A stretch of DNA of 64,000 bases from NCBI GenBank assembly GCA_963707215.1, contig CAVPPB010000003.1:704001-768000 (forward strand), in the 5' to 3' direction. Position numbers and translations under genes: made by a program. Origin of the DNA: an uncultured Chloroflexia bacterium. GTDB taxonomy: Bacteria > Chloroflexota > Limnocylindria > Limnocylindrales > CSP1-4. The notes under the pieces are model-generated. The model searched no databases. It was not told the DNA's origin and saw only the letters and a program-made list of their open reading frames with translations. Numbering within the stretch: position 1 is the first letter of the stretch; every line of letters begins with the position of its first letter. Shown here piece after piece: positions 1,417 through 57,437 of this stretch.

Positions 1417-1461
1417 CTGGTGCGTGGTCTCCGAGCTGCGGCCAGGGGTCGGCCCCGGTGA

Positions 1462-1760: not shown

Positions 1761-1819
1761 TCTTCGTGATGTGGGCGGGAGTCTAGGCGCGGCCCGCCCG
1801 GAGCGTCAAGCGCAGCGGC

Positions 1820-2086: not shown

Positions 2087-2208
2087 GACTCCCTGTGATC
2101 CGCGTGGACCGCGCCGCGGTCGGTCCTCGGTGACCGATCCCAGGCACGACGCCGGCAGCCACCATACCGCGCCGCCCCGGCATGAGCACGGTGGCCCATC
2201 GTCGACGG

Positions 2209-2538: not shown

Positions 2539-2650
2539 CTGGGCCTCCGGATATCGATCGAGGTCAGCATTTCGGGTCGCTGCGTGGATGCGCCGCAATC
2601 GAAGGATAGCCGTCGAGCGGAGGATGGCACATGCCGGCAGGGATCAGCGA

Positions 2651-2738
2651 TGGCGGAGAGGGTGGGATTCGAACCCACGGAGGCTCTCGCCTCAGCGGTT
2701 TTCAAGACCGCCGCAATCGACCGCTCTGCCACCTCTCC
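2651..2738 (-). tRNA. tRNA-Ser (anticodon TGA)
   Basis: GGAGAGGTGGCAGAGCGGTCGATTGCGGCGGTCTTGAAAACCGC...GTGGGTTCGAATCCCACCCTCTCCGCCA. Long variable arm, TTCGAA T-loop, encoded CCA. Confidence 0.97.
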
Positions 2739-2769
2739 GCGACGGCCAGCATACGGTACCGTGCGGGGC

Positions 2770-3537: not shown

Positions 3538-3596
3538 CCCTCGCCGCGTCGTCGCCTGCGCCGAGACTCCGACCCGGGCGTCCGACGCGCCTCCCC

Positions 3597-4574: not shown

Positions 4575-4682
4575 CGGCCCGGCCGCGACCCGATGGGCTC
4601 GGGACCAGGGCCAGGATCGCCGCGCCACGATCGGATCGGGCGATCTCGGGCCACCGACCCGGTCATCCGGTCGGACCGGGTC

Positions 4683-36668: not shown

Positions 36669-36722
36669 CGGGGCCGAGTCTACGGTCTGGAGCGCCCTGC
36701 GGCTTGCTATGCTGCGCCGACC

Positions 36723-41962: not shown

Positions 41963-42799
41963 TCAGCTCTCGGCGGCCTCCACCCCGGCCGCCGTCCGAA
42001 GAGTGGGGGTCGCGATCCGCTGGCGTCGGACCAGGTCGAAACGATAACCGGCCGGCAGCGAGTGGAGGACGACGTTGCTCACCATGACCGGCCGGTGCCC
42101 GCGGACGTCCCAGGCGTCGGTCTCGGAGGCCGACCCATCCACGACCGTGACGCTGCCCCGGCCGATGACCTCCAGGACATGGTCCGGGCCGACGACGCCG
42201 GCCGTGTCCTCGTCGACTCCCAGCCCCAGCAGGCTGGGGTTCTGGGCGATCAGGCTCAGCAACCGGCCCAGCCGGTTCCGCTGCTGGAAGTGCTGGTCGA
42301 CGATCACCCCGGGCAGCACCCCGAGCCCGACCGCGATCTGGGCCATCCGCTGCTTCGGCGTCCCGCCGGAGGTGCCGAAGGCGATCATGTGGCTGCTCAT
42401 CGCCGAGGCTCCCGCGGAGGTCCCCGCGACGACGTTGCCTGCTCGATGGGACTCCAGGATCGCCGCCGCGAGGCGGGTGGCGCCCAGCGTCGCCGAGAGC
42501 TTCAGCTGGTTGCCGCCGGTCAGGAAGACGCCGGTCGAGGCCCCGACCAGGGCGACGGCGGCCTCGTCGTCGGCCTCGGCTCGGGTCGTCGCGTGGATCG
42601 GATGGACACGACGGACACCGAGATCACCGAAGACCTCCCGGTAGCGCTCGGCCGCCTCGACCCCCAGCGACGAGGCCGTGCTGATGACCGCGATCTCGGC
42701 CCGCGGGCCACCGGCCAGCGCCACGAAGCGCTGGAGGATGACACGGTCGCGGAACCTGTCCTCCGCGCCCCCGATGACGATGACGGTGCCGTCGGCCAC
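41963..42799 (-). CDS. cphB: Cyanophycinase
   Basis: IVIGGAED, FLTGGNQL, AGTSAGA (catalytic Ser), VDQHFQQRNRLGRL, GVDEDTA. Confidence 0.96.
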   Translation of the reverse strand: MADGTVIVIGGAEDRFRDRVILQRFVALAGGPRAEIAVISTASSLGVEAAERYREVFGDLGVRRVHPIHATTRAEADDEAAVALVGASTGVFLTGGNQLKLSATLGATRLAAAILESHRAGNVVAGTSAGASAMSSHMIAFGTSGGTPKQRMAQIAVGLGVLPGVIVDQHFQQRNRLGRLLSLIAQNPSLLGLGVDEDTAGVVGPDHVLEVIGRGSVTVVDGSASETDAWDVRGHRPVMVSNVVLHSLPAGYRFDLVRRQRIATPTLRTAAGVEAAES

Positions 42800-42926
42800 G
42801 ACCCGGCGAGCCCTCCCGAACGTTCGCGTGAGGATAGCAAACGGGCCGGAGCCCGCCGGCGAGGCCCCGCGGGGATGACCCGGCGGAGGCGGTCGCGCCC
42901 GGCAGGGTGGACCGCCGACGGCCGGT

Positions 42927-45017
42927 TCAGTGGATCGGGCCGACCGCCTGGTCCAGCGAGGCGCCCCGGAACTCCGACGTGTCCACGAGGCGATGGATCC
43001 TGCTGAGCAGCTCGCGGGCGCTGGCGGGCTTGACCAGGTAGTCGCTGCAGCCGATCGCCTCGGCCTCGGCGATGTCGGCCGCGCTCGAGTTGGCACTGAC
43101 GATCACGATAGGGACGTCGAGGCCGGCCGAGCGGACCTGGCGCGCCAGCTCCAGGCCGCTCCCATCGCCGAGGCCGACGTCGAGCACGATGATGCCGGGC
43201 GTGGACAGCTGGAGCGCCTCTTGGGCAGCCGCCAGGCTCGCCGCCTGCTGGACCTCGTAGCCGGCGCTCGAGAGGACATCGGTGACGAGCTCACGGGCCG
43301 TCGCGTCGTCTTCGACCACCAGGACCGGCACGGACCCCGGCGGCGGAGCGGGCGGCAGTGGCATGATCCGGATCGAGCGGTCGCGCGGCGACGCGATCCG
43401 GACCCCCGGCAGCGAGACGACGAAGGTGCTGCCGATCCCGTACGTGCTGGAAACGTCGATCGAGCCGCCGTGGAGCTCGCAGAGCCGCCGGGCGATCGCC
43501 AGACCCAGCCCCGTGCCGGAAGAGGTCGAGCCCAAACGCTCGAAGGGCTCGAAGACGCGGTCGAGGCTCTCAGCCGGGATGCCGACCCCGGTGTCGTGGA
43601 CGGCGATCCGGACGTCCGCTTCGTCGATGGACGAGTCGATCCAGACGCGCCCACCGGGGGCCGTGAACTTGATCGCGTTGGTCACTAGATTGAGCAGCAC
43701 CTGCCGGAGGCGGAGTGGATCCACCAGGACCCTGGCCTCGGTACGGTCCACCGCCGCCAGCTCGACGCCACGATCGCGAGCGACCGGGGCGGCGGCATCC
43801 ACGGCCTCGAGGATCAGGGCCTGGAGCTCGATCGGCTCGGGGTGCAGCTCAAGGTGGCCCGAGTTGATCCGGGCGAGGTCCACGACGTCGTCGATGAGGC
43901 CCAGGAGGTGCTTGCCGCTGGCGTGGATCTTGGTGCCCAGCTCGCGCATCCGATCCTCGGTCAGGGCGCCGAGCGCGGGATCGCTGACGAGCTCGGCCGC
44001 GATCAGGATCGAGTGCACCGGCGTGCGCAGCTCGTGGCTGACCGTGGCCAGGAATCGGAGGCGCTGCTGCGCCCCCTGCTCGAGCTCGGCGTTGAGGCGG
44101 TCGAGCTCCTCGACGAGGCGGGTCATCCGGCCGTGGATCCGGGCGTTGACCAGGGCGCCTGCGGCGTGCGCCGCGAGGGCGATGGCGAGCTCGCGATCCG
44201 CGTCATCGAACTCCGCCCGGCCGACCTTGTTGGCGAAGTAGAGCCTGGCCAGCATCTCGCCGTCCTTGACGACCGGGACCCCGAGGAACGACGTCATGAC
44301 CGGGTGGCCTCTCGGCACGCCGACGGATGCCTGGTGAGCCCGGAGGTCGGCCAGCATCACCGGACCGCTGTCGGCGGTGATCAGCCCGAGCACGCCCCTG
44401 CCGACCGGGAGCGGCCCCATCCGCTCGACGGTCTCGGGCTCGATGCCCTGGTGCAGGAACCGGTCGGTCGCCCCCTCGTCGCCGACGACGAGCATCGCGG
44501 CGTACTGGGCGCCCATGATCGACCGCGCCATCGTCAGGATGAGGTCGTGCACCTGCGCGGGCTCCCGGACGTCGGCCAGGGCGAGCATCGCCGAGCGGAT
44601 CCTGGATTCAGAGTCGCGGGCCCCGTCGATGACGGACTGCAGCGGGCCTCGATCGATGACGGTGACGAGCAGGGCGTCCGGTCCTGCGAGGGGCCGCTCC
44701 GGTCCGCCGGGCCGATCGTGCCACGGCCGCACGAGCAGACAGACGGGCATCGCGCGACCATCCGGGGCGACCATCCGGCACTCCACGTCGACGGCATCGG
44801 ACCGGCCGGCGAGGACCGCGCGCGCCCGTTCGACGATGCCAGGCGCGTCGCCGGGATCGAGCGCCCCGGCCAGGGACCGAACCTTGAGAACGCCAAGGTC
44901 CATGCCGACCAGCTCTCCGAACGGAGGGTTCGCGTGGACCCACCGGAGATCTCGGTCCAGCACCGCCATCGCCAGTGGGACGGCGTCGACCAGGTCGCGG
45001 ATGTGCTCGGATCCCAT
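42927..45017 (-). CDS. Hybrid sensor histidine kinase (PAS-GAF-HisKA-HATPase-REC)
   Basis: PAS (VHANPPF), DosS-like GAF (SVGVPRGHPVMTSFLGVPV), SHELRTP, NLVTNAIKFT, DTGVGI, GTGLGL, C-terminal receiver (VEDD...LDV...KP). Confidence 0.93.
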   Translation of the reverse strand: MGSEHIRDLVDAVPLAMAVLDRDLRWVHANPPFGELVGMDLGVLKVRSLAGALDPGDAPGIVERARAVLAGRSDAVDVECRMVAPDGRAMPVCLLVRPWHDRPGGPERPLAGPDALLVTVIDRGPLQSVIDGARDSESRIRSAMLALADVREPAQVHDLILTMARSIMGAQYAAMLVVGDEGATDRFLHQGIEPETVERMGPLPVGRGVLGLITADSGPVMLADLRAHQASVGVPRGHPVMTSFLGVPVVKDGEMLARLYFANKVGRAEFDDADRELAIALAAHAAGALVNARIHGRMTRLVEELDRLNAELEQGAQQRLRFLATVSHELRTPVHSILIAAELVSDPALGALTEDRMRELGTKIHASGKHLLGLIDDVVDLARINSGHLELHPEPIELQALILEAVDAAAPVARDRGVELAAVDRTEARVLVDPLRLRQVLLNLVTNAIKFTAPGGRVWIDSSIDEADVRIAVHDTGVGIPAESLDRVFEPFERLGSTSSGTGLGLAIARRLCELHGGSIDVSSTYGIGSTFVVSLPGVRIASPRDRSIRIMPLPPAPPPGSVPVLVVEDDATARELVTDVLSSAGYEVQQAASLAAAQEALQLSTPGIIVLDVGLGDGSGLELARQVRSAGLDVPIVIVSANSSAADIAEAEAIGCSDYLVKPASARELLSRIHRLVDTSEFRGASLDQAVGPIH

Positions 45018-45365
45018 GTGCCGCCCAGGCCCTCTCCGCTCCAAGCCCGGCGGGATCGCCGGGGGACGCGCGCCGGTCGGGCGATTGTGCTCGTTGGAAC
45101 CGAGGGCGTCTACCCGCATCCGGGGGGTCTCCGGGCCGGGGTGCCGCTCCGGGTGCAGGGGACGGCCTGCTGCATTCGCGGGGCCGCTCCATCGGCTGCT
45201 GCGTGCGGCGCCCGTTGACGGCGCCGGTATGGTTGAGGCTCGGCTCACCGCTGCCGTGCCGGATGTGGTTCCCAGGGTACGTGCCCGCCCGGGGAGGACC
45301 GACCGGCGCTCGGGGAGGGGCGGGGTCGATCATGGGCCTGCGTCTTCCGGGGGAGGAGGACGAGG

Positions 45366-46163
45366 ATGGCAGGGGGTGTCTTCGGCCGACCCGAGATCGG
45401 CTCGACCGGTCCGCACGTAGAGGAGCGGGCCGCGCCGGTCCCGGGCGGGGCGCGCTCGAGCAGCGCCACCGGTCCGGTCCGCCCACCCGAGACGGCTCCG
45501 GCGAGCCCGATCCGGGTGATGGTGGTGGATGATCACCTGGCGTTCGCGGAGGCGCTGGCCATGGTCATCACCGCGCGCCCGGATCTCGACTGCCCGGTCA
45601 TCGCGACGTCGATCACCGACGGCCTGCGGGCCGCGGAGCGCGAGGCCCCGGACGTGATCCTGCTCGACGTGCTGCTCCCGGACGGCGACGGCGTCGACGC
45701 GATCGACCGGTTCCGCGACGCCGCGCCCGGTACCCGGATCCTGGTGCTGACCGGCCACATGGACCTCGACGTGCTGACGCGAGCCGCGGCCTCGGGGGCA
45801 AGCGGCTTCCTCCAGAAGGAGAGCAACGTCGAGGCGATCGTCCGGGCCATCCGGGCGGCACGGGACGGCACGATCCTCGTCGAGCAGGCGACGCTGACCT
45901 CGATCCTCGGCCGGGTCCGCCAGGGCGCCGCCTCGGCCGGGGCGGCGGACGACCGTCCCCACCTGACCGCCCGCGAGATGGACGTCCTCGCCCTGATGGG
46001 CGAGGGGCTCGACCCGCACGCCATCGCCCAGCTGCTCGAGATCAGCCTCAATACCTGTCGTGGCTACCAGAAGAGCCTCATGGCCAAGCTGGACGCCCAC
46101 AGCCAGCTCGAGGCCGTCGTGATCGCCACGCGCCGAGGGATCATCCAGCCGCCCAAGAGCTGA
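45366..46163 (+). CDS. NarL/FixJ family response regulator
   Basis: VMVVDDH, LLDVLLPDGDG, GASGFLQK, LuxR HTH LTAREMDVL...KLDAHSQLEAV. Confidence 0.94.
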   Translation: MAGGVFGRPEIGSTGPHVEERAAPVPGGARSSSATGPVRPPETAPASPIRVMVVDDHLAFAEALAMVITARPDLDCPVIATSITDGLRAAEREAPDVILLDVLLPDGDGVDAIDRFRDAAPGTRILVLTGHMDLDVLTRAAASGASGFLQKESNVEAIVRAIRAARDGTILVEQATLTSILGRVRQGAASAGAADDRPHLTAREMDVLALMGEGLDPHAIAQLLEISLNTCRGYQKSLMAKLDAHSQLEAVVIATRRGIIQPPKS

Positions 46164-46216
46164 CCCGGCACCGGCCGGTGACCCGGCCGTCGCGCCGGCG
46201 CCGGGCCGCCCGCGTC

Positions 46217-46236
46217 GACCCCCAAGACTGGGGGTC
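46217..46236. promoter_or_regulatory. Perfect inverted repeat, candidate operator upstream of the giant oxidase gene
   Basis: GACCCCCA-AGAC-TGGGGGTC, with no U-tract after it. Confidence 0.45.
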
Positions 46237-46352
46237 TCGCCCCTCCAGTTGCGGGCTCGTCGCCCGGTCCATCGACCCCGACCATAGTCGCGTCCGCCCG
46301 TGGAGGGAACGTGGCGGTGGAGGATGACCGGTCCGGTCGAGGAGGGAAATCG

Positions 46353-49300
46353 ATGGACCGCTTGCGCGCTGTGCCTGTGCGCGCCGTGCGTGCACGAGCA
46401 CGGGCGGCCGCGCCGCCCGACCCCCGTCGTCGCCGGTCCGCCGCAACGGCTCCGATGTCACGGTCGATCCGGCCGCTGGCGTTCCTGGTGGCCGCCGTGG
46501 CGATCGCGCTCGGAGGGATCGGCACCGCCCACGAGTACCACCACGAGCTCCACGAGCACCACGAGCTGCCCCCCATCCTCCACTTCGGTCGTGACGCCGC
46601 GCTCGCCCTCCCGTTCGCGGTCGTCGCGGTCCTGGCCGCGACCGTCCTCTGCCTTGCCGTCCTCCGTCACGGCCGCAGCGCCGCCACCTCGATCGGTCTG
46701 CGCCTCCTCTGGGCGCTGAGCGCCGCCGGCGTCTTCGCCGCCCTCAGCATCCCGGGCAACGAGCTCCACGGGCGCCTGTTCGCCGCCGAGCACACCCTCG
46801 AGCTCGGCTGGCTGGAGCACGCCCTGCGTGATGCCGGCTTCGTCTTCGCCGGCTCCGCGATCGCCGCCGCCCTCGTCGCCGTGACGATCGGCCCACCGTG
46901 GCCGACCCGTCGCCTGGCGGCCTGGCCGCGCGCCTCGAGGCCCAGCGCCGGCCTCCTCGTCCCCGTCGCCCGGAGAGTGGGCGCGGCGTTCCTGGGCCTC
47001 GCGGTCCTGGCCTCGCCGATGCTGCCCTTCCCCACTCCCGCGTTCGTGCCGCCGGTCGAGGCGGTCGAGCCCGGGGTGGCGGCCGAGTGCGTCCGCACCG
47101 TCACGGCCGACGTCGTGGCGCTGGACCAGCCCTTCTACTACAACCGGCTGGGCGCCATCAACGCCAACGGCATGATCTACGCGCTCGCCCGGGACGTGGT
47201 CGTGAACGCCGGCGTCGCCGGCCTCGCCGGTCGCCCGCTGAGCGAGCTGACCGATGCCGAGCGGGAGACCGTAGACGGCCAGGTCTCGCTCCGAGCGGAC
47301 AAGCGACCTCGGCCGCTGACCCTCCGGGTGAATGAGGGGGACTGCCTGGCGATCCACTTCACGAACCTGCTGGACCCCGTCGGGTTCATCTTCGACCTGC
47401 CGGCCGACTTCCCGACGGACCCGATCCTGGGCCTCGGCGTACCGATCAACCAGCAGGTCGACAACCAGCCGCTCACCCGCGTGGCGTCGATCCATGTCGA
47501 CGGCCTGGAGCTGGTGAACGGCATCGCCGACGACGGTTCGCGCGTGGGCCGGAACCCCGCTGGCAGCAGTGTCGTCGCGCCCGGCTTCAGCACCGACTAC
47601 ACCTACTACGCCCCGGACAAGGGCACCCACCTGCTCTACAGCATGGGCACGACCCTCGGCGCGGAAGGCGACGGCGGGACTCGCTCCTACGGGCTGTTCG
47701 GAGCGGTCAACGTCGAGCCAGGCCCGACGGGCACCTTCCCCGGCTCGCTCTGGTACCGCAGCCAGTTGACCCGCCAGGAGATGGACTGGGCCACGCCTCC
47801 CGAGACGTTCACCGACTGGAACGCCAACGGGACCTGGGACGCCGGCATCGCCGAGCCCCTGACCGACTGGAACGAGAACGGGGTCCAGGACAACGGCATC
47901 GCCGAGCCCCTGACCGACTGGAACGAGAACGGGGTCCAGGACAACGGCATCGCCGAGCCCCTGACCGACTGGAACGAGAACGGGGTCCAGGACAACGGCA
48001 TCGCCGAGCCCTTCACCGACGTCGATGGCGGCACCCCTGGCGTGTACGACCTGGGCGAGCCGTTCACCGACTGGAACGAGAGCGGGGCCTGGGACGCCAG
48101 CGTCGACGAGCCGTTCACCGACTGGAACGAGAGCGGGGCCTGGGACGCCAGCGTCGACGAGCCGTTCACCGACTGGAACGAGAGCGGGGCCTGGGACGCC
48201 AGCGTCGACGAGCCGTTCACCGACTGGAACGAGAGCGGGGCCTGGGACGCCAGCGTCGACGAGCCGCTCGTCGACACGAACGGCGACGGGATCTGGAACG
48301 CCCACCAGGCGACCCCGGGCGGCCAGCCGATCCTCGACTACTTCGCGACGTACCCGCTGGAGGCCGGGCCGGCGAAGGCGGGCCTGCCGATCCTCAGCAT
48401 CCTCACGCCCGACCTGGAGATCATCCACTCGGACCTCAACGCGATCGTCGACGACCGCGGCTTCCCGTACCCGGACAACCAGGCCTACCCCAACCGCGGC
48501 GAGGAGCCGTTCCGCGAGTTCACGGTGATCTTCCACGACGAAGGCGTGGGGGTTCAGGCGTTCCCCGGCTTCTACAACGACCCGGTCCTGCGCCACACCC
48601 TCCACGGCGTCGTGGACGCCTTCCCGATCAACTACGGGTCGGGCGGCATCGGTTCGGAGATCATCGCCAACCGGCTCGGCGTGGGTCCGATGTGGGACTG
48701 CGCCGAGTGCAAGTACGAGGAGTTCTTCCTCACCTCGTTCACGGTCGGCGACCCGGCCATGATCGTCGACGTCCCGGCGAACACGACCGACGCCGCGGGC
48801 GCCATCATCCCCGGCCCCAAGGCCACCAAGGCCCTCTTCCCCGACGATCCGTCGAACGTCCACCACGCTTACCTGGGCGACCGGGTGGTGTTCCGCAACC
48901 TGCACGCCGGGCCCAAGGAGCACCACATCTTCCACCTGCACGCCCACCAGTGGCAGTTCAACCCGGACGACCCACAGTCGAACTACCTCGACGGCCAGGC
49001 GGTCGGGCCGGGCTCCGGCTACACCTACGAGATCGCCTATGGCGGGTCGGGCAACCGGAACCTCACCCCGGGCGACTCGATCTTCCACTGCCACTTCTAC
49101 CCGCACTTCGCCCAGGGCATGTGGGAGCTCTGGCGGGTCCACGACACCTTCGAGCCCGGGACGCTCATGGAGACCGACCCGACCGACGGCCTGCCGTGGC
49201 CGGCTGATGGCGCGCGCGCCCTGCCGGACGGGGAGATCGTCCGCGGTACGCCCATCCCGGGCGTGGTCCCGATGCCCGGGACGCCGATGGCGCCGATCCC

Positions 49301-52300
49301 CGACCCGGCTGCGACGATCGTGGCCCACGACCTCGACGGGGACGGCGCCCCCGACTCCAGCCAGTTCGACGCGAACGGCGACGGCATCGCCGACATCCTC
49401 CAGCCCGACGACCCGACCGCCGAGCCGGCGACGAACCCCGGCTACCCATGGTTCACCCCGGGCCTGGTCGGCCACCGGCCGCCCACGCCGGCGCTGGACC
49501 TCATCGACGACGGCGGCCTGCCACGCCACGTGGTCGCGAGTGGCCCGCTCGAGGACAACCCCGGCCACGCGGGGCCGCCCGTCGATACGTACGTCTCGCG
49601 GCTCGACTTCAACAAGGTCCTCCACGAGGCCTCGGCGATCCAGCTCCCGGAGGACGGCACCCCGGCGGAGCAGGTCGCCATGGCCTTCCACGCCGGCCCC
49701 GGCGGAGGCGACCCGACCTACGACAGCTTCTTCCCCGACGGTGCACCGGCCACGGGCCCGGACGGGTTCGAGGTGAACGGCTTGCCACCGGTCCGTGGCG
49801 CGCCCTTCGCCGATCCGTGCCGTGCCTTCAACGGCTCAGGGCCCTGGACCCTCGACTACCCCAACGGGACGGTGCGGACGATCAAGGGCGCCAACATCGA
49901 GATGCCGATCGTCCTCAACAAGGTGGGCTGGCACTTCCAGCAGCAGCGCTTCGAGGCGCTCTGGGAGGACGTCGTCCCGACGTTGACGAACGCCCGTGCC
50001 CCGCAGCCGATGATCATGCGGCTCAACAGCACCGACTGTGCCGAGTTCCACCATGCCAACCTGGTGCCGAACGTCTACCAGCTCGACGACTACCAGGTCC
50101 GCACGCCGACCGACATCATCGGCCAGCACATCCACTTGGTGAAGTTCGACGTCATGAGCGCCGACGGGTCGGCCAACGGCTGGAACTACGAGGACGGGAC
50201 CCTCAGCCCGGACGAGGTCCGCGAGCGCATCGACGCTTTCAACAACGGCGGCGGCCTGGTCCAGCTCGACGGCACCACGACGACGGCGCTCGCGCCGGAG
50301 GCCCATCCGTACTTCGGAGCGACCGGCCCGGACGACCAGGACTGGCGCGGCGCCCGGACCACCGTCCAGCGCTGGTACGCCGACCCGCTCCTCGAGCGAG
50401 CCTGGGACGGTGGCGTGGGCACCGTCTTCACCCACGACCACTACGGCCCGTCCACGCACCAGCAGGTGGGCCTCTACTCGACCCTGCTCGTCGAGCCGAA
50501 GGGCTCGACCTGGCGCCACAACGAGACGGGCCAGGCCCTCGGGACCAGGGCGGACGGAGGTCCCACGACCTGGCAGGCGATCATCCAGCCGGGGACCGGA
50601 GCGAGTGACGCCAGGTTCAAGCCCCACCGCGAGTTCTACTTCGAGTTCGCCGACTTCCAGCACGCCTACGAGCGGAACGGCGGCGCCCTGGGAGCCCAGC
50701 CGAACGAGGCCGTCCTCGGCCCGGCCGAGACGATCCCGTCGTACGCGGACTTCGACGACGCCATCAACCCATCGTTCCGGCTGCCGCCGCCGGACCCGGC
50801 CGACATCTACATCCACCCGAACTACTGCCCAGGCACGACCTTCGACGCGGCCGGCAACCCCCTCAACGTCGTGGCCCGACCATGCCCCGAGGCGATCTCG
50901 GCCGACGACCCGGGCACGTATGCCCTGAACTTCCGCAACGAGCCGATCGGCCTGCGGGTCTTCAACGGCCAGGTCGGCCCGGGCGCCGGCCAGTCGCCCG
51001 GCCTCGCCGGCGACATCGCCCACGCCTACCAGTCACGGACGGACCGGGCGATCCCCGAGCTGAACGTCCAGCCCGAGACGAACGGCATCTCCCCATACCC
51101 GCCGCTGACCGCCGACGTCCAGCCCGGCGATCCGTGGACCCCGATGCTCCGGGTCTACATGGGCGACGACGTCCGGATCCGGGTCCAGGTGGGCGCCCAC
51201 GAGGAGGAGCACAACTTCACCATCCCCGGGCTCAAGTGGAAGCAGGAGCCCAACAGCGAGAACTCGGGCTGGAAGAACAGCGAGTTCTTCGGCATCGACG
51301 AGTACTTCAACCTCGACGTGCCGATCGTCCCCGACACCGGCTCCGGCACCCCGGCCCGGGTCGACTACATCTACACGGTCGGCGCCGAGCTCGAGGGCAT
51401 GTGGAACGGCGTCTGGGGCGTCCTCCGCAGCTACAGCAGCCAGCGAAACGACCTGGTGGAGCTGCCGAGCAACGACGTGGGCCGCAACGGCTACGTCATC
51501 ACCAACGACGCAGACTTCGACGGGATCTGTCCGACGACGGCACCGGTGGCCTCGTTCGACGTGACGGCCGTCCGGGCCGTCGACGTCCTGGACCCGGTCC
51601 AGGGCCTCGTCTACAACGAGCGGCTGACGACGCTCCGCGCACCGCTCGGCGGCGTCAACGGACAGGGCCCGCTCATCGACCCGACAGCGCTGATGTACGT
51701 GCTCGACCAGGACCTGGTCCGCGACGCGACCGGGGCCCCGACGGGCTTGAAGCCGGGCACTCCGATCGAGCCGCTCATCCTGCGGGTGAACGCGGGCGAC
51801 TGCGTCCTCGTGGACCTCACGAACGCGCTCCCGCCTGACCTGTCCGGGACCGAGATGCCCGGCCTCAACGCCCTGCCGCCCATCGTCCAGAAGGACGTCG
51901 ACGTGGCGGTCCCCGGCGTCGGCGGGATCCTGACCTTCAACAGCAATGACCTCACCCCCTCGAGCAAGGTCGGCCTGACACCGCAGCTGCTCGCCTTCGA
52001 CCCGCGGACCGACGGCGGGTTCAGCACGGGACTCACCACCGGCCGGCTCGTCGAGCCGGGTGCCACCGGCCGCTACCGCTGGTACGCCGGTGACGTGACG
52101 GTGGCCAACGCCGGTGTCCAGGGCAACCGAACCAGGTTCACCCTGTCGGCCAGCCCGGTCGAGTTCGGGGCCACCGGCCTCATGCCCGCCGACCGGATCA
52201 AGGGCGACGAGAACGGCTTCGTCGGCGCGCTCATCGTCGAGCCGCAGGATTCGTGCTGGATCGCCGACCCGGGCACCCGGGCCCAGGCCACGGTCTGGAA

Positions 52301-55181
52301 GGGGGCCAGGGACGGAGGTGGCGGGACCCTGACCGACGCGTGCCCCGCCCCACCGGCCAGCTCCACGGACAGCTTCCGTGACTTCGTCACGATCATGCAG
52401 AACGGCATCAACCTGCGCTACGGCGGGACGGTGGAGGTCCTCGACGCGCTCGGCAACGTCGTCCAGACGATCGACTGCGCCGCGGACCCGTCCCCGATGC
52501 AGTGCGCCGTCCCGATGATCGCCGCCGAGGGCCCGCTCGGGCCGACCGAGGACCCGCAGGACTCCGGCCAGAAGGCGATCAACTACGGCGCCGACCCGCC
52601 CTGGTTCCGCCTGGGCATCACCCCGGACACCCCGTTCGGGGCGATCCATCGCGACCCGGCGCTCAAGGACACCATCCCGGAGGTCTTCTCCAGCTTCCTC
52701 GACATCGGGGACGGCCTGGGCCAGGCCGGCGATCCACAGACCGAGGTCTTCCGGGCCAGCCCGAACGGGCCGGAGTACGGCCGGTTCCGGGTCGTCATGC
52801 CCGGCGGCCACGCTCGCGGCGTCACCTATACGCTGCACGGCCACCAGTGGCAGCGCCAGCCGTACCTCAACGGCTCCAGCGAGATCGGCCACAGCCCTGT
52901 CTCCGAGTACTACGGGACCCAGGAGGGCATCAACCCGACCGGCCACTGGGACTTCGTGGCCGACCTCGGCGGCGGGTTCGACGTCGCCGGCGACTACCTC
53001 TGGCGGGACCAGGCATCGTTCGGCAGCTTCCAGGGCCTCTGGGGCCTGCTCCGCTTCGACCAGACCGAACCCGTCGCGCCCGACACGGGTGTCACGCTGC
53101 CCAAGTACACGTTCGTCGACCTCGACCTCCTCGCGGGGGCGTTCGACCTCGACGGGCTCATCGGGGCCAGCGTCCAGATCGTCGGCGGGCCGTCGTTCGG
53201 CGCCCTCGTCGACCCGGAGGGCGATGGCACCTACCGCTACACGTCCACGGACTGGCCGGCCTGCGCCGACGCGTTCGCCTGCCAGGACAGCTTCACCTAC
53301 ACCATCACGGACGGGACCGGGTCGGTCTCGGCTGCCGGCACCGTGGTGCTCACCATCACGAACACCGCCCCCGTGGCGAACAACGACACCATCATCATCA
53401 AGGCACCGTTCACCGGCGGCTCCGTGGACGTGCTCCTCAACGACCTCGACGCCGAGGGCGATCTCGACCCGGCTCGCGACCCGGTCGTGGAGCCGTTCGG
53501 CCAGCCGGTCGATCGGCGCGGCAACCCCGTCGGCTCGATCGCCGACGCGGTCGTCGACGCGGACGGCCGAACGGTCACCTACACGCCGCCGGCTGGATGG
53601 TCGGGCGTCGCCCTGATCCAGTACAAGGTCACCGACGAGTCCGGAGCGGTCTCGAACACGGCCCTCATCCGGGCGGCCGTGAACGTCGACGACATCACCA
53701 TCACGAGCGCCCGCTACCAGCCCGCCAACCAGCGCTGGTCGATCTCGGGCACCTGCAACACGCCGTTCGAGCCGGGCACCAGCACGCCCACGACGATCGA
53801 GATCTTCTCCGGTCCCACGATCGAAGGGACGCCCCCGGTGATCGGGACGGCCACCTGCATCCCGGGCGACCCGGTCGGGACCTGGAGCTTCAGCGGCACG
53901 TCGACCGTGCCGGCGCCGGACCCGAACGCCTTCAACTACGTGAGCGCCGAATCCGCCCTCCAGGGTTTCTACGAGGGCTTCCCGCTCACCTTCGCCGGCC
54001 AGAACAACGCGCCGGTCGCCACGAACGACGTCTACACCACGGACGAGGACACGACGCTCACCGGGAACGTCCTCGCCAACGACAGCGACGCGGACTTCGA
54101 CCCGCTGACCGCGGCCCTGGTCACCGGGCCCGCGCACGGGACGCTGGCGCTCGCCCCGACCGGAGGCTTCACGTACGAACCCGACCCGGACTACGCGGGC
54201 ACCGACAGCTTCACCTACCAGGCCAGCGACGGGCAGGACCAGTCGGCCGTCGCCTCGGTCGACATCACGATCACCGCCGTCAACGACGCGCCACGGGCCG
54301 TCGACGACACGTACGTCACCGATGCCGGGGTGCCGCTGAGCGTCCCCGCCCCCGGCATCCTATCCAACGACAGCGACGTCGAGGGCGACCCGTTCACGCT
54401 CGACACGACGCCGCTGAGCGATCCGGCCAACGGGATCGTCGCCCTGAACGGCGACGGCTCGTTCACCTACACCCCGGCGGTGGGCTTCAGCGGCACCGAC
54501 TCCTTCGTGTACCGCATCTGCGAAGACCTCGGCGGTCCGAGCGAGCTCTGCGGCACGGCGACGGTCACGATCGCCGTCGGGGTGAACAGCGCCCCCACGG
54601 CGAACGACGACGCCGGCTACACGACCGCGCAGAACACGACCCTGAACGTCGGCGGTCCGGGCGTGCTCGGCAACGACACCGATCCCGACAACGACCCCCT
54701 CGTCGTCGCATCGGTCAATGGCGTCGCGACCAACGTCGGCGCCGCCGTGGCCCTGCCCTCGGGCAGCACCGTCACCGTCCAGGCGAACGGGTCGTTCACC
54801 TACGTCCCGCGCTTCAACTTCGTCGGCAACGACTCCTTCACGTACGTCGCCGGCGATGTCCCGGCCGGCGCCCTCTCGCACACGGCCACCGTGACCGTCG
54901 CCGTGAAGGACACGGTGACGATCACCAGCGCCAGCTACCGGCAACGCCAGGGCCGCTGGCAGGTCCAGGGCACGGTCTCGAACACGACCAGTCGCGTGGA
55001 CGTGTACCTGAACCGCGTCGCGCCGGCGGACCTGCTCGGGGCGGCGAATGTCGACGCGATCGACGGGAGCTGGTCGCTCAGCGGCGTGCTCGGGAAGACC
55101 CCAGGGGTGGGCGACACGGTCATCGCCGTCTCCTCCGGCCGGGGCGAATCGGCTCCATTCCCGGTGTCGATCAGACGGTAG
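46353..55181 (+). CDS. Giant MnxG-like multicopper oxidase with N-terminal His-rich membrane domain, Ca-binding-like repeats and C-terminal Ig/cadherin-like domains
   Basis: Cu motifs HHIFHLHAHQW, IFHCHFYPHFAQGM, GQHIHLVKFD, FTHDHYGPSTHQQVGL, TLHGHQW. N.AP.A.DD..GSFTY.P..F.G.DSF.Y Big_9-like repeats. GGAGGG RBS before ATG 46353 (alternative start 46455). Confidence 0.9.
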   Translation: MDRLRAVPVRAVRARARAAAPPDPRRRRSAATAPMSRSIRPLAFLVAAVAIALGGIGTAHEYHHELHEHHELPPILHFGRDAALALPFAVVAVLAATVLCLAVLRHGRSAATSIGLRLLWALSAAGVFAALSIPGNELHGRLFAAEHTLELGWLEHALRDAGFVFAGSAIAAALVAVTIGPPWPTRRLAAWPRASRPSAGLLVPVARRVGAAFLGLAVLASPMLPFPTPAFVPPVEAVEPGVAAECVRTVTADVVALDQPFYYNRLGAINANGMIYALARDVVVNAGVAGLAGRPLSELTDAERETVDGQVSLRADKRPRPLTLRVNEGDCLAIHFTNLLDPVGFIFDLPADFPTDPILGLGVPINQQVDNQPLTRVASIHVDGLELVNGIADDGSRVGRNPAGSSVVAPGFSTDYTYYAPDKGTHLLYSMGTTLGAEGDGGTRSYGLFGAVNVEPGPTGTFPGSLWYRSQLTRQEMDWATPPETFTDWNANGTWDAGIAEPLTDWNENGVQDNGIAEPLTDWNENGVQDNGIAEPLTDWNENGVQDNGIAEPFTDVDGGTPGVYDLGEPFTDWNESGAWDASVDEPFTDWNESGAWDASVDEPFTDWNESGAWDASVDEPFTDWNESGAWDASVDEPLVDTNGDGIWNAHQATPGGQPILDYFATYPLEAGPAKAGLPILSILTPDLEIIHSDLNAIVDDRGFPYPDNQAYPNRGEEPFREFTVIFHDEGVGVQAFPGFYNDPVLRHTLHGVVDAFPINYGSGGIGSEIIANRLGVGPMWDCAECKYEEFFLTSFTVGDPAMIVDVPANTTDAAGAIIPGPKATKALFPDDPSNVHHAYLGDRVVFRNLHAGPKEHHIFHLHAHQWQFNPDDPQSNYLDGQAVGPGSGYTYEIAYGGSGNRNLTPGDSIFHCHFYPHFAQGMWELWRVHDTFEPGTLMETDPTDGLPWPADGARALPDGEIVRGTPIPGVVPMPGTPMAPIPDPAATIVAHDLDGDGAPDSSQFDANGDGIADILQPDDPTAEPATNPGYPWFTPGLVGHRPPTPALDLIDDGGLPRHVVASGPLEDNPGHAGPPVDTYVSRLDFNKVLHEASAIQLPEDGTPAEQVAMAFHAGPGGGDPTYDSFFPDGAPATGPDGFEVNGLPPVRGAPFADPCRAFNGSGPWTLDYPNGTVRTIKGANIEMPIVLNKVGWHFQQQRFEALWEDVVPTLTNARAPQPMIMRLNSTDCAEFHHANLVPNVYQLDDYQVRTPTDIIGQHIHLVKFDVMSADGSANGWNYEDGTLSPDEVRERIDAFNNGGGLVQLDGTTTTALAPEAHPYFGATGPDDQDWRGARTTVQRWYADPLLERAWDGGVGTVFTHDHYGPSTHQQVGLYSTLLVEPKGSTWRHNETGQALGTRADGGPTTWQAIIQPGTGASDARFKPHREFYFEFADFQHAYERNGGALGAQPNEAVLGPAETIPSYADFDDAINPSFRLPPPDPADIYIHPNYCPGTTFDAAGNPLNVVARPCPEAISADDPGTYALNFRNEPIGLRVFNGQVGPGAGQSPGLAGDIAHAYQSRTDRAIPELNVQPETNGISPYPPLTADVQPGDPWTPMLRVYMGDDVRIRVQVGAHEEEHNFTIPGLKWKQEPNSENSGWKNSEFFGIDEYFNLDVPIVPDTGSGTPARVDYIYTVGAELEGMWNGVWGVLRSYSSQRNDLVELPSNDVGRNGYVITNDADFDGICPTTAPVASFDVTAVRAVDVLDPVQGLVYNERLTTLRAPLGGVNGQGPLIDPTALMYVLDQDLVRDATGAPTGLKPGTPIEPLILRVNAGDCVLVDLTNALPPDLSGTEMPGLNALPPIVQKDVDVAVPGVGGILTFNSNDLTPSSKVGLTPQLLAFDPRTDGGFSTGLTTGRLVEPGATGRYRWYAGDVTVANAGVQGNRTRFTLSASPVEFGATGLMPADRIKGDENGFVGALIVEPQDSCWIADPGTRAQATVWKGARDGGGGTLTDACPAPPASSTDSFRDFVTIMQNGINLRYGGTVEVLDALGNVVQTIDCAADPSPMQCAVPMIAAEGPLGPTEDPQDSGQKAINYGADPPWFRLGITPDTPFGAIHRDPALKDTIPEVFSSFLDIGDGLGQAGDPQTEVFRASPNGPEYGRFRVVMPGGHARGVTYTLHGHQWQRQPYLNGSSEIGHSPVSEYYGTQEGINPTGHWDFVADLGGGFDVAGDYLWRDQASFGSFQGLWGLLRFDQTEPVAPDTGVTLPKYTFVDLDLLAGAFDLDGLIGASVQIVGGPSFGALVDPEGDGTYRYTSTDWPACADAFACQDSFTYTITDGTGSVSAAGTVVLTITNTAPVANNDTIIIKAPFTGGSVDVLLNDLDAEGDLDPARDPVVEPFGQPVDRRGNPVGSIADAVVDADGRTVTYTPPAGWSGVALIQYKVTDESGAVSNTALIRAAVNVDDITITSARYQPANQRWSISGTCNTPFEPGTSTPTTIEIFSGPTIEGTPPVIGTATCIPGDPVGTWSFSGTSTVPAPDPNAFNYVSAESALQGFYEGFPLTFAGQNNAPVATNDVYTTDEDTTLTGNVLANDSDADFDPLTAALVTGPAHGTLALAPTGGFTYEPDPDYAGTDSFTYQASDGQDQSAVASVDITITAVNDAPRAVDDTYVTDAGVPLSVPAPGILSNDSDVEGDPFTLDTTPLSDPANGIVALNGDGSFTYTPAVGFSGTDSFVYRICEDLGGPSELCGTATVTIAVGVNSAPTANDDAGYTTAQNTTLNVGGPGVLGNDTDPDNDPLVVASVNGVATNVGAAVALPSGSTVTVQANGSFTYVPRFNFVGNDSFTYVAGDVPAGALSHTATVTVAVKDTVTITSASYRQRQGRWQVQGTVSNTTSRVDVYLNRVAPADLLGAANVDAIDGSWSLSGVLGKTPGVGDTVIAVSSGRGESAPFPVSIRR
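47802..48305 (+). repeat. In-frame 51-bp (17-aa) tandem array, 10 units
   Basis: Units start at 47802, 47853, 47904, 47955, 48006, 48057, 48108, 48159, 48210 and 48261. Three identical EPLTDWNENGVQDNGIA and four identical EPFTDWNESGAWDASVD. Confidence 0.95.
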
Positions 55182-55206
55182 CGACTGTGCGAACCTAGGC
55201 GGGACG

Positions 55207-55239
55207 GACGTGGGCCGCGTCGAGAGACCGGCCCACGTC
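55207..55239 (+). other. Intergenic stem-loop between the oxidase and beta-propeller genes
   Basis: GACGTGGGCCG...CGGCCCACGTC, an 11-bp perfect stem with no U-tract. Confidence 0.55.
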
Positions 55240-55275
55240 ACTGCCCTTGGGGCACGCGAGCGAGTGGGAGGACGC

Positions 55276-57303
55276 ATGCAGGCGACGGGCGAACGGCATC
55301 CGGGCTGGCTTCTGCCGGTCCTGGCCGCCCTCGCCCTGGTCCTCTCCGGCTGCTCGATCCTGTCGGGCACCGTGCCGGCGGAGCATGCCCACGAGCCCGG
55401 CACCGAGGACGTGGAGCACACCCACGGCCCCGGGACCGACGAGGGTGAGCACGCCGGTGAGGGCGCCGTGGACCTGGACCATCACGGCAACCCGGTCTAC
55501 GGGGAGGACGAGCGCGTCTACGAGACGGTGACCACCGGCGGCGTGACCGTCGAATTCACCGTCGAGAACTTCATCGGCGTCGGCGGCCGGGGTGGCGAGG
55601 TGGCACCGAGGCTCGTCGAGGGCGAGCACGCCAACCTCCAGTTCCACGTGACCGATGCCTCGACCGGCGCCCCCGTTCCGGATCTGGCGCCCGCCGTCTG
55701 GGTCGACGTCGCCGGTGGCGACGCGGACTGCTCGGCGCGGGTGGCCGGCTATCGGTCCGGGGCGCTGGACCGGCGACCGTTGGTCGACCTCAACAGCTAC
55801 TTCATCCTGGCCATGAACCGGGACAACACCATCTCGGTCCTCGATCCGACGGTCGACGTCGCCGGGATGACCAACCTCTTCTCGGTGATCCTGCTGCAGG
55901 CGGACCCGGGGGACTGGGCGCTGGACCCCGAAGGTGACCGGCTGTTCGTGACGCTGCCGTCGCTCGACAAGATCGCCGTCATCGACACGGAAGGGTTCAT
56001 GGTCGAGGACCACGTCGACCTGCCGGGCACCCCGACCCACATCGCCATGGAACCCGGCGGGGCACGGGCCTGGGTCAGCCTCGCCGGCGATGACGGGCTG
56101 GCCATCATCGATGTCGGGACGCTGGCGAGCGAGCGGCTCGAGGGAGCGGTCGCCACGGCTGCGGCCTTCGGGAGCGATGGGCGAGCCCTGGTCGGCACAC
56201 CTCGTGGCGTGTCCATCCGGGACATCGGGACCCTGGCCGAGCTCGGCCGGGTCGACCTGCCCGGGACTCCGGCGACCATCGCGGTCGGTCCGACCGGCGA
56301 CGCGTACGTCGCCCAGCCCGATGCCGGGCTCGTCTCGGTCCTCGGGCCGGACGGGACGGAGCGGGCGCGTATCGCGACCGGCCGGGGGGTGACCGCGGTG
56401 GCCATCTCGCCCGACGGACGCTGGGCCGTCGCCGCCGATCCCAGCGCCGATGCGGTGTACCTCATCGAGACCGCGACGGACCGGATGACCCACGTGATCC
56501 CGGTCAGGGGCTCGCCCGACCTGGTGACCTTCACCTCGACGTCCGCTTACGTGCACACCCCCGACTCACCGTCGATCACCGTCATCCCGCTGGCCGAGAT
56601 CGACCCGACCGGCGACGTGGGGGTCCTCACCGTCCCGATCGGGGACCGGCCCGCCGGCTCCACGGGCGCTCCGACCATCGGCGGGGCGCTCGCGCCGACG
56701 CCGAACGGGGCAGCCATGCTCATCCCAAACCCGGCCGACGACACCGTCTACTTCTACACCGAGGGGTCGAAGTCGGCCCTCGGGGGCTTCCAGGGTCACA
56801 CGCTGGAGCCGCGTGCGGTCCAGGTCGTCGACCGGAGCCTCCGCCAGCCCTCACCGGGCGTCTACACCGGCAGCATCCGGATCCCCCAGGGCAAGGACTT
56901 CGTCGTGGCCTTCCAGCTCGCGGACCGGAAGCTGACCCATTGCTTCGAGTTCTCGGCCCGGGCGACCGAACGACCGCTCGACGACCCGGCAGCCCGGCCG
57001 GAGATCGAGGTCCTCACGGCCGACGGATCGTTCGTCGCCGGCTCCCCGGTCGCCTATCGGTTCCGGCTGGCGACGGCCGACGGACGACCGATCGCGGAGC
57101 TGAGCGACCTCAGCACCCTGGCCGTCGGCACGGCCACCGGGTGGAGGGATCGCTTCGCGGCCGTCCACGTCGGCGACGGCGTCTACGAGGCCACCCTCCA
57201 GCTGCCGGCACCCGGCTACTACCAGCTCTTCTTCGCGGTGCCGTCCATCGGGGTCGGCTACGCCGACCTGCCGTCGCGATCGGTCAAGGTGGCTCCGGGC
57301 TGA
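55276..57303 (+). CDS. YncE/cytochrome d1-like beta-propeller lipoprotein with His-rich N-terminus and YtkA/FixH-like C-terminus
   Basis: GGGAGG RBS; signal peptide with lipobox LSGC; EHAHEP..EHTH..EH..DHH; propeller blades (DPEGDRLFV, ISPDGRWAV); GDGVYEA..PAPGYY. Confidence 0.82.
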   Translation: MQATGERHPGWLLPVLAALALVLSGCSILSGTVPAEHAHEPGTEDVEHTHGPGTDEGEHAGEGAVDLDHHGNPVYGEDERVYETVTTGGVTVEFTVENFIGVGGRGGEVAPRLVEGEHANLQFHVTDASTGAPVPDLAPAVWVDVAGGDADCSARVAGYRSGALDRRPLVDLNSYFILAMNRDNTISVLDPTVDVAGMTNLFSVILLQADPGDWALDPEGDRLFVTLPSLDKIAVIDTEGFMVEDHVDLPGTPTHIAMEPGGARAWVSLAGDDGLAIIDVGTLASERLEGAVATAAAFGSDGRALVGTPRGVSIRDIGTLAELGRVDLPGTPATIAVGPTGDAYVAQPDAGLVSVLGPDGTERARIATGRGVTAVAISPDGRWAVAADPSADAVYLIETATDRMTHVIPVRGSPDLVTFTSTSAYVHTPDSPSITVIPLAEIDPTGDVGVLTVPIGDRPAGSTGAPTIGGALAPTPNGAAMLIPNPADDTVYFYTEGSKSALGGFQGHTLEPRAVQVVDRSLRQPSPGVYTGSIRIPQGKDFVVAFQLADRKLTHCFEFSARATERPLDDPAARPEIEVLTADGSFVAGSPVAYRFRLATADGRPIAELSDLSTLAVGTATGWRDRFAAVHVGDGVYEATLQLPAPGYYQLFFAVPSIGVGYADLPSRSVKVAPG

Positions 57304-57437
57304 CCCGCCCAGGGCAGGACAGCCGGATCCGCGGGTCCAGCCGCGACCGAGCGCACCGGGGCCCGTCATCGCTGCTCCGGAGGCGATCCCCGGTCGAGGC
57401 TGGCGCAGCCAGGCCGGCCCGTGCGACGATGCGGGAT

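Follow-up and report, generated by a model that had tools for sequence, protein, structure and literature searches.

What do four genes set between a cyanophycinase gene and a glycosyltransferase gene encode, and do they constitute a metal oxidation system of the cell surface? The genes are found in an uncultured Chloroflexia bacterium (GTDB lineage Limnocylindrales, CSP1-4), in a stretch of 64,000 nucleotides from contig CAVPPB010000003.1 (positions 704,001 to 768,000, forward strand); the whole stretch is termed the window. The original prediction, made from the sequence alone, described an oxygen-regulated, surface-tethered manganese or metal oxidation system. The analysis indicates that the largest gene encodes a full-length homologue of Pseudomonas-type MnxG whose sequence displays one complete, invariant T1 plus trinuclear copper site. 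As a whole, the locus is probably a cell-surface metal oxidase island of the MnxG family with a propeller partner and its own switch. The genes are the following.

46353..55181 (open reading frame from 46311), plus strand: giant MnxG-family multicopper oxidase, 2942 amino acids in its database form
55276..57303, plus strand: YVTN beta-propeller lipoprotein of 675 amino acids with an LSGC lipobox
45366..46163, plus strand: NarL/FixJ-type response regulator, REC at residues 51-163 (PF00072, 4.6e-20) and GerE at residues 200-254 (PF00196, 7.1e-12)
42927..45119 (open reading frame to 45248, 773 codons), minus strand: cytoplasmic hybrid sensor histidine kinase, PAS-GAF-HisKA-HATPase-REC

The oxidase and its copper sites

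Three parts of the oxidase gene carry the family assignment.

47088..53057, plus strand: MnxG-homologous catalytic core, residues 260-2249, collinear with positions 1-1893 of profile NF041487; Bacillus MnxG (PDB 9bxa) is matched at 2.4e-72
48921..49121, plus strand: HxxHxH (H872, H875, H877) and HCHxxxHxxxxM (H926, C927, H928, H932, M937), which make up the T1 site and one half of the trinuclear cluster
50121..50465, plus strand: HIH (H1273, H1275) and HDH (H1375, H1377), which make up the remaining half of that cluster

NF041487, the NCBIfam equivalog model of the Pseudomonas-type MnxG, is matched with E = 0 and 1480.3 bits, its pieces occurring in order (1-220, 221-665, 692-783, 810-1386 and 1464-1893). 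It is the sole multicopper oxidase model of NCBIfam to match; the CueO, CopA and laccase models of that collection show no match to the oxidase, and Pfam yields Cu-oxidase_2 only, at 19.4 bits against a cut-off of 20.4. Bacillus MnxG is the only oxidase found in a sequence search of the PDB, aligning in four stretches. The proposed membership of the MnxG family, rather than of the laccases, CueO or CopA, is therefore upheld. The more specific likeness to the Pseudomonas type holds in part: the full profile is collinear and the copper ligands are complete, but the score is less than half of the equivalog cut-off of 3100 bits, and orthology with the tested Pseudomonas MnxG is thus not established from the sequence. 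The gammaproteobacterial copy (genome G108) scores 2414 bits, likewise below the cut-off. No oxidase above it was found among 401 genomes of the gammaproteobacterial class, two of which have matches, or in 14 control genomes.

Copper ligands were compared in an alignment of 42 oxidases (41 of the 120 listed matches plus the G108 copy; P0001 numbering). Mean column identity is 26%, and the twelve T1 and trinuclear ligands are invariant in all 42, as are C797, C800 and H1634. The HIH and HDH histidines are also invariant in 32 of 32 sequences of a second set, and the HxxHxH and HCHxxxHxxxxM motifs align to equivalents in Bacillus MnxG. All five motifs quoted in the original prediction are present in the translation: HHIFHLHAHQW at residue 871, HCHFYPHFAQGM at 926, GQHIH at 1271, DGSANGWNYEDG at 1285 and THDHYGPSTHQQ at 1374. 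The C-terminal cupredoxin-like part keeps LHGHQW only and has no HCH, so that one T1 plus trinuclear site is predicted per oxidase.

An AF2 model of residues 689-1838 (32-row alignment) is poor, with a pLDDT of 58.7 and the lowest values around the copper motifs; from it the identity of the top fold match was used and no geometry was read. The top match is 9bxa (4.5e-28, TM 0.43), followed by ascorbate oxidase (1.6e-9) and, more weakly, by laccases, NirK and ceruloplasmin.

The oxidase gene has two candidate starts, GTG at 46311 and ATG at 46353, with a GGAGGG box upstream of each. An 18-nucleotide direct repeat (46292-46309 and 46331-46348) holds the box before each candidate. Repeats in 45050-46480 are short two-copy families only, two of which contain GGAGGG boxes.

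The oxidase-propeller pair across phyla

At least 3487 database proteins match the oxidase core, in records named for Acidimicrobiia, Anaerolineae, Nocardioides, Nitrospirota, Methanoperedens, Desulfuromonas and others. Gene neighbourhoods were surveyed at 96 loci: 15 from named genomes, one from G108 and 80 from metagenomes. Among 80 named-genome loci these 15 carry the core, and the other 65 match the immunoglobulin (Ig)-like tail only. Dereplication at 90% identity left 64 clusters, and neighbours were counted by tblastn with the proteins of the window at fixed thresholds.

Among the 47 clusters with at least 2500 bp of DNA downstream, 35 carry the gene for a propeller homologue immediately after the oxidase gene and on its strand; one more carries it elsewhere in the locus, and the other 11 have none. 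It is also present in six of eight clusters with 600-2499 bp downstream; nine clusters that have no downstream DNA were not counted. Propeller-positive loci occur in every major branch of the tree, and the G108 propeller is 32% identical over 591 amino acids (1e-90). The oxidase-propeller pair constitutes the conserved core of the system across phyla. The original prediction had led one to expect that the genes recur together in relatives, and for this pair they do. For the kinase and regulator the picture differs: the kinase orthologue was seen only in the same genus, and loci L007, L009 and L015 use an AAA-GerE regulator.

The family tree (FastTree, 103 rows, three of 106 having been dropped for incomplete coverage) is unrooted, with a midpoint root for drawing only; it excludes P. 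putida MnxG, McoA and Bacillus MnxG and shows placement within the family only. The window belongs to a clade of 10 rows (support 99) together with metagenome proteins that are 69-81% identical, an Acidimicrobiia metagenome-assembled genome (MAG; L007) and a metagenome contig (L102). This clade is nested in one of 43 rows comprising Acidimicrobiia, Nocardioides, Chloroflexota and Gemmatimonadales, most scorable loci of which have Big_9 tails. The sister of the 43-row clade is a clade of 17 rows that includes the gammaproteobacterial G108 copy.

Accessory genes vary. SCO1-like genes follow the propeller gene in 20 of the 64 clusters, none of them in the clade of the window, and the genome's one SCO1 is about 860 kb away from the island. 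As predicted, none of the four coding-type open reading frames of the block is a Sco gene; all four are assigned and no MnxE/F-like gene is visible among them, although no homology search with MnxE/F sequences was made.

Two further arrangements were seen in the surveyed loci. At L098 (G108:C111) 15-4619, the cassette stands directly after GspK-, PilN/GspL- and GspM-like genes and a secretin; after these genes of a type II secretion system (T2SS) follow a HisKA-HATPase-REC-Hpt kinase and a NarL regulator, the latter divergent. In the Chloroflexota loci L010 (20096-22429), L012 (12629-15772) and L013 (19477-23319, plus strand) the propeller is followed by a PKD/Big_9 protein of 778-1281 amino acids, which has no counterpart in the window.

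Anchor, repeat loop and tail of the oxidase

The oxidase displays three additional segments.

46455..47033, plus strand: N-terminal polytopic anchor with five transmembrane-like segments by hydropathy (residues 52-74, 94-118, 127-148, 174-196 and 215-241)
47800..48266, plus strand: 51-bp tandem repeat of 9.2 copies (TRF) encoding 17-amino-acid DWNxNGxxD units
53058..55178, plus strand: C-terminal Big_9/cadherin-like Ig array with five Big_9 stretches (Pfam; NCBIfam tandem-95 repeat)

Both the membrane anchoring and the adhesin-type extension had been foreseen, and they are borne out by the hydropathy of the N-terminus and by the Pfam matches of the tail. Arg-rich loops of the anchor are on the side predicted to be cytoplasmic by the positive-inside rule; His-rich loops (HEYHHELHEHHE and others) and the catalytic part are on the predicted outer side. 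No Pfam family matches the anchor below E 0.048. A candidate Atlas family match for the anchor, which scores 0.81, was within noise and was set aside. A search of 1.84 billion proteins gave 80 representative matches to the anchor, most of 84-300 amino acids and six exceeding 900; the short ones could be stand-alone proteins or N-termini truncated by contig ends. Polytopic His-rich N-termini with three to seven transmembrane-like segments are found in 11 of the 58 clusters that have complete N-termini, and all 11 are in the clade of the window; the N-termini of the other clusters have one hydrophobic segment or none.

The repeat loop is of variable length. In place of the loop, four residues (TTGT-like) are present in 14 of the 42 aligned homologues, and eight have 104-320 residues of such repeats. 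No Pfam family matches the loop, and the DxNxNGxxD unit is one that we take to be calcium-binding-loop-like. One contig in each of the sediment metagenome runs X1 and X3 joins position 47844 to 48261, such that 416 repeat bases are skipped, with two other letters between; this represents either a natural short-array variant or a collapse in short-read assembly. No sortase or other C-terminal anchor signal was detected in the tail.

The propeller lipoprotein

The propeller gene starts 95 bp after the oxidase stop codon. The predicted beta-propeller partner, as in Pseudomonas, is thereby in place directly downstream, and its YVTN repeat matches TIGR02276 at 37.8 bits against a cut-off of 27.85. 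The protein consists of the lipobox, a His-rich linker, an Ig-like domain, a seven-bladed propeller of the YVTN/YncE type and a C-terminal YtkA-like Ig domain; a 33-bp repeat at 55380-55452 (TRF) makes up part of the linker. The same order of lipobox, linker, Ig domain, propeller and YtkA-like Ig domain is common to 41 of 89 other listed homologues. In these and the window's protein, two cysteines and two tryptophans are invariant, and the consensus of the linker is DH...HxH...DHHGNP.

The AF2 model of the propeller is good (pLDDT 83). Its best fold match is 1l0q, an archaeal surface-layer YVTN-PKD fragment, followed by NosZ, NirF and YncE. The fold is ordinary, and these generic matches of the fold search offer no functional lead.

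Kinase and response regulator

One domain of the kinase bears on the signal.

44151..44561, minus strand: GAF domain of the DosS/DosT haem-binding type (PDB sequence search)

The kinase probably starts at M44 (45119), because conservation with the orthologue in a genome of the same genus, G001, begins at residue 38. Pfam domains are PAS_4 (87-183), GAF_2 (230-366), HisKA (396-464, PF00512), HATPase_c (510-614) and REC (642-751), with a single GAF and a single PAS. The H-box His405 and the receiver Asp690 are present; no Hpt domain was found with Pfam. In the PDB search the GAF domain matches DevS GAF-A at 1.8e-27 and DosT at 2e-24, the next GAF being at 5.5e-9. The alignment to DevS GAF-A covers 137 residues: His315 and Tyr337 correspond to DevS His149 and Tyr171, and the positions of Glu87 and His89 are occupied by Leu and Val. 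In DevS, His149 is proximal and Tyr171 distal, and DosT has Gly at the Glu87 position, as stated in PMC4082495. The sequence makes it reasonable to regard the GAF domain as a putative haem-based sensor of gas or redox state. Of the DosS-type control that had been proposed, the sensor part stands, with the haem His and the distal Tyr kept, but the transmitter is HisKA plus REC and not HisKA_3.

The regulator gene is divergent from the kinase gene and lies 190 bp upstream of the oxidase gene on the same strand. REC and a GerE helix-turn-helix agree with the predicted NarL type, and no sigma54-activator domain is present by Pfam and NCBIfam. Among the 49 clusters with at least 1500 bp of upstream DNA, a full-length NarL-type regulator is found within 5 kb upstream in nine and any GerE helix-turn-helix in 15; in the clade of the window the latter is found at 11 of 15 loci. 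The rough chance rate is about 3% per 5 kb (18 GerE genes in the 3.26 Mb of the own genome), and related loci are not independent. L008, L013 and L018 each have a HisKA_3 kinase as the regulator's partner, and one of these kinases has a GAF domain; the gammaproteobacterial copies L098 and L153 are accompanied by a HisKA-HATPase-REC-Hpt kinase and a NarL regulator. A GerE/LuxR regulator of 890-910 amino acids is divergent from the oxidase in the Acidimicrobiia relatives L007 (7165-9894), L009 (589-3273) and L015 (6535-9201), all on the minus strand, and an AAA_16 domain was detected in those of L009 and L015. The regulator module thus recurs around oxidase copies while its input varies. NarL control had been regarded as a distinguishing mark of this genome; with a NarL/GerE regulator also beside the gammaproteobacterial copy, that distinction falls.

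NarL-type regulators usually pair with HisKA_3 kinases. Since they do, and since the kinase has no Hpt domain, direct transfer from kinase to regulator is uncertain. A search of the genome gave a single Hpt domain, on another contig, in a 143-codon open reading frame (G000:C1:156280-156522, minus strand) about 3 kb from a paralogue of the kinase (C1:159390-160511, minus strand, 1612-codon open frame). Hybrid kinases without an Hpt of their own, among them that of the island, might use it in a phosphorelay.

The island and its flanks

Long spurious open reading frames abound in the window, which has a G + C content of 72%. Genes were kept where the frame showed the coding pattern of high GC1, low GC2 and GC3 of about 0.9 (GC1>GC2<GC3). 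By this analysis exactly four coding-type genes are present between 42.9 and 57.3 kb, and all four predicted genes are real; their start codons are provisional. The flanking genes, also as predicted, are the following.

41963..42901, minus strand: left flank cphB, cyanophycinase (Peptidase_S51 by Pfam), start somewhere in 42823-42901 judging from alignment starts in relatives; ancestral, outside the island
57429..58388, plus strand: right flank GT87 membrane glycosyltransferase (frame analysis; Pfam GT87, 1e-9); ancestral, outside the island

The GT87 gene was revealed by frame analysis alone. Beyond cphB on the left is cphA, and beyond GT87 are MFS, GATase and metH genes on the minus strand. 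G021, G006 and G016, which represent three further genera of the family, have cphA-cphB immediately beside GT87, with MFS next, and nothing resembling the kinase, regulator, oxidase or propeller stands between cphB and GT87. The gap between these two genes is about 730 bp in G021, where MFS and GATase come after GT87, as against about 14.5 kb in the window; two further genomes of the comparison have no cphA. Because of this arrangement in the sister genera the four genes represent one 14.5-kb insertion, gained in the lineage of the genus or lost from its sister genera, and the notion of a self-contained block is sustained. The oxidase core (residues 701-2249) was found in none of 60 relatives, 36 of the same family and 24 of the same order.

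In G001, which is in 330 contigs, pieces of the island and its flanks are on three separate short contigs, with DNA identities of 85% for cphAB, 74% for the kinase and 80% for the oxidase 3' end, propeller, GT87 and MFS. Given these pieces, the island is a trait of the genus, the repeat-rich oxidase core being unassembled in G001. A full-length kinase orthologue was seen in G001 only; other matches, in 40 relatives, are at most 42% identical and mostly cover part of the query. The kinase and regulator go with the island rather than with the cph genes.

Base composition shows no sign of foreign origin, G + C being 0.69-0.73 inside the island, as in the flanks. A promoter and terminator scan of 42700-58500 gave no promoter-like site and one terminator-like site, which is inside the oxidase gene on the opposite strand; this is fewer than in shuffled sequences. 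Contigs at least 90% alike from the sediment metagenome runs X1, X3 and X5, of two studies, cover all 30 bins of 42001-58500. Most of these pieces are 90-99% alike and so derive from close relatives, not from the strain itself. The contigs from X1, X3, X5 and X7 are short, and no piece spans the block or its junctions. None of the listed sequencing runs is of RNA, and runs with shares below 0.2 were set aside.

At the left end of the island (42823-42927) no more than about 105 bp separate the end of the kinase gene from cphB, which lies downstream on that strand, and the insertion may have placed cphBA under read-through from the kinase gene. Farther to the left, a second Mur-ligase-type gene stands beside cphA (36354-38480, plus strand). 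It has Mur_ligase_M and Mur_ligase_C only, shares about 40% identity with the C-terminal half of cphA, keeps its position in G001, G021, G006 and G016, and may encode a cphA-related ligase partner.

Comparison with known systems

The P. putida GB-1 operon begins with mnxG, followed in turn by genes for the YVTN propeller, two SCO1 proteins, SBP/cytochrome c and SurA (PMC11409713, Table 4). The Pseudomonas propeller is called a beta-propeller lactonase-family protein in a figure legend of PMC8218464, and a review describes control by the sigma54-dependent MnxS1/S2/R and a dedicated T2SS. The island resembles this operon in its giant oxidase collinear with the whole NF041487 profile, with the same copper motifs, in the YVTN propeller immediately downstream, in a predicted extracytoplasmic location and in the involvement of a two-component system. 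It differs in that SCO1, cytochrome c and SurA genes are missing from the block, a NarL/GerE regulator stands in place of the sigma54 activator, and there is no T2SS but a fused polytopic anchor. The oxidase itself differs from P. putida MnxG in its score (1480 versus 3100 bits) and in its extra Big_9 tail and repeat loop. At the G108 locus T2SS genes adjoin the cassette, which agrees with the dedicated T2SS that the review gives for P. putida.

The Bacillus Mnx complex, MnxG with an MnxE3F3 ring (9bxa), is the only solved relative and was the top match in both sequence and fold. The HxxHxH/HCHxxxHxxxxM, HxH and HEExH motifs align. Bacillus MnxG, however, has 1217-1227 amino acids and no anchor, tail or insert, and aligns in four stretches only; by the inventory of open reading frames no MnxE/F-like small genes fit in the island, and the Bacillus complex is located, according to the review, in the spore exosporium and not at the vegetative cell surface.

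The mycobacterial DosS(DevS)/DosT-DosR systems share with the island the GAF-A homology with its proximal His and distal Tyr, and a partner regulator of the NarL family. Unlike them, the window kinase has one GAF domain rather than GAF-A plus GAF-B, an extra PAS domain, HisKA in place of HisKA_3 and a C-terminal REC domain. Its Leu and Val replace Glu87 and His89, the Glu being absent also from DosT, which has Gly there (PMC4082495).

A further likeness is to the unorthodox kinases with NarL-type partners, of the BarA/UvrY or GacS/GacA type. In these, as in the island, a HisKA-HATPase-REC kinase is found beside a REC-GerE regulator, and L098 and L153 show exactly this arrangement with Hpt. The window kinase differs in having no Hpt domain and in cytoplasmic PAS-GAF sensors that replace periplasmic or membrane input.

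Proposed function and alternative explanations

It is proposed that the oxidase would be held at the outer face of the cell's membrane by its five-helix His-rich anchor, with the core and Ig-like tail outside, and would use O2 to oxidize a metal cation. That the substrate is a metal cation of some kind is likely. Among single candidates Mn(II) comes first: every characterized relative is an Mn oxidase, and the operons have the partner gene in common. We put it slightly short of an even chance, since orthology is not established, the members of the clade are unassayed and some members occur in anaerobes. The lipoprotein propeller would stand beside the oxidase on the membrane and may serve as a scaffold, in substrate delivery or in copper loading. 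The NarL/GerE regulator would switch the oxidase-propeller operon, and the PAS-GAF kinase would feed it a haem-based O2, NO or CO signal or a redox signal, either by a phosphorelay through an Hpt protein encoded elsewhere or with REC serving as a sink. The sequence does not reveal the sign of the response.

The lack of SCO1 in the clade, the clade-specific anchor and the T2SS beside the G108 copy suggest that the clade may have swapped secretion and SCO chaperones for a fused anchor. It can be speculated further that in the SCO1-less clade (Acidimicrobiia, other Actinomycetota, Chloroflexota and Gemmatimonadales) the anchor and the His-rich linker of the propeller form a built-in means of copper loading and anchoring that replaces SCO1 and T2SS, and that in this genus the DosT-like haem-GAF kinase couples oxidase expression to O2/NO at the redox boundary of the sediment, the place at which Mn(II) and O2 meet; in this full form the proposal is improbable.

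Several observations weigh against a manganese or metal oxidase island under its own control. The profile score is under half of the equivalog cut-off, and substrates of multicopper oxidases are not readable from sequence. Members in records named for the anaerobes Methanoperedens and Desulfuromonas fit poorly with a uniform Mn(II)/O2 role, and 11 of the 47 clusters have no downstream propeller. With respect to control, the kinase orthologue is restricted to the same genus as far as seen, the closest genome-resolved relatives (L007, L009 and L015) have the large AAA-GerE regulator and no two-component pair, and the kinase has no Hpt domain while NarL types usually pair with HisKA_3 kinases, as in L008, L013 and L018. 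No promoter-like or terminator-like site in the scanned region delimits operons, and the position of the kinase gene ahead of cphB makes read-through into cphBA possible.

The same anatomy might serve another chemistry, acting on Fe(II), Cu(I) or organic/humic phenolics in detoxification, iron acquisition or polymer oxidation, with no role in Mn oxide formation. Besides the low profile score, this explanation can draw on the breadth of a family that reaches taxa not known to oxidize Mn, on the absence here of genes for SCO1 and cytochrome c, which the Pseudomonas operon has, and on experimental support that, in the portions of the literature consulted, is confined to the P. putida and Bacillus enzymes. 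It is nevertheless somewhat unlikely: the characterized relatives in sequence and fold are all Mn oxidases, the CueO, CopA and laccase models do not match, and the YVTN propeller known from the Mn oxidase operon has been retained. A separate question is whether the kinase and regulator act on cphBA, and hence on cyanophycin turnover, or on distant targets, leaving the oxidase and propeller constitutive or controlled elsewhere. The kinase gene is co-directional with cphB-cphA and close to it, the genome's one Hpt is on another contig beside a different kinase, and the nearest relatives use a different type of regulator. Yet relatives that have cphBA and no island are also without this kinase and regulator, GerE-type regulators are upstream of the oxidase at most loci of the clade, and a hybrid kinase with a NarL regulator also flanks the gammaproteobacterial copy, so that targets outside the island appear quite unlikely.

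Two further explanations are very improbable. The protein could be mainly an adhesin or surface-layer component whose oxidase core is a non-catalytic relic, in keeping with the large Big_9/cadherin tail, the repeat-expanded surface loop and the archaeal surface-layer protein as best fold match of the propeller; the invariance of all twelve copper ligands at so low a mean identity, and the two thirds of the protein taken up by the oxidase core, speak against it. The fusion of the enzyme to a polytopic membrane domain with conserved histidines, and regulation by a redox or gas sensor, would suit lithotrophic Mn oxidation, in which electrons from Mn(II) enter respiration and the oxide is not the product of a side reaction. 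In multicopper oxidases, however, electrons go directly to O2 at the trinuclear site, and the four open reading frames of the island include no cytochrome, quinone-binding or other electron-transfer gene. A surface metal oxidase with a propeller partner and its own switch is thus the reading retained here.

Significance

For pseudomonads, mnxG operons that include propeller and SCO genes have been published (PMC11409713, PMC8218464). MAG surveys tally mnxG homologues in Planctomycetota, Nitrospirota, Acidobacteriota and Actinomycetota (PMC10367259, PMC13439051, PMC10732223); a further paper (PMC10734462) reports no mnxG hits. The original prediction had presented a non-proteobacterial version as unusual, a view that does not survive the number of database matches and the annotation of such homologues in the surveys. 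The kind of system is already known; its build is new. A literature search, supplementary tables not covered, turned up no published account of a SCO-less clade with a fused anchor, of the oxidase-propeller pair as universal or of control by a haem-GAF kinase, and it found no title or abstract opening that suggests kinase control of MnxG. In the MnxG literature that was found, the propeller appears as a table or legend entry only.

The comparison reduces the mnxG operon to a two-gene core of oxidase and YVTN propeller kept across phyla, with SCO1, cytochrome c, SurA, T2SS and the type of regulator as lineage options. This core directs experiments at the propeller. The small island, with its own sensor and regulator, offers a compact unit for heterologous study of how such an oxidase is switched. 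Mn oxides control trace metals and carbon turnover. Should the enzyme oxidize Mn(II), the candidate producers of these oxides would come to include the single-membraned Actinomycetota of sediments.

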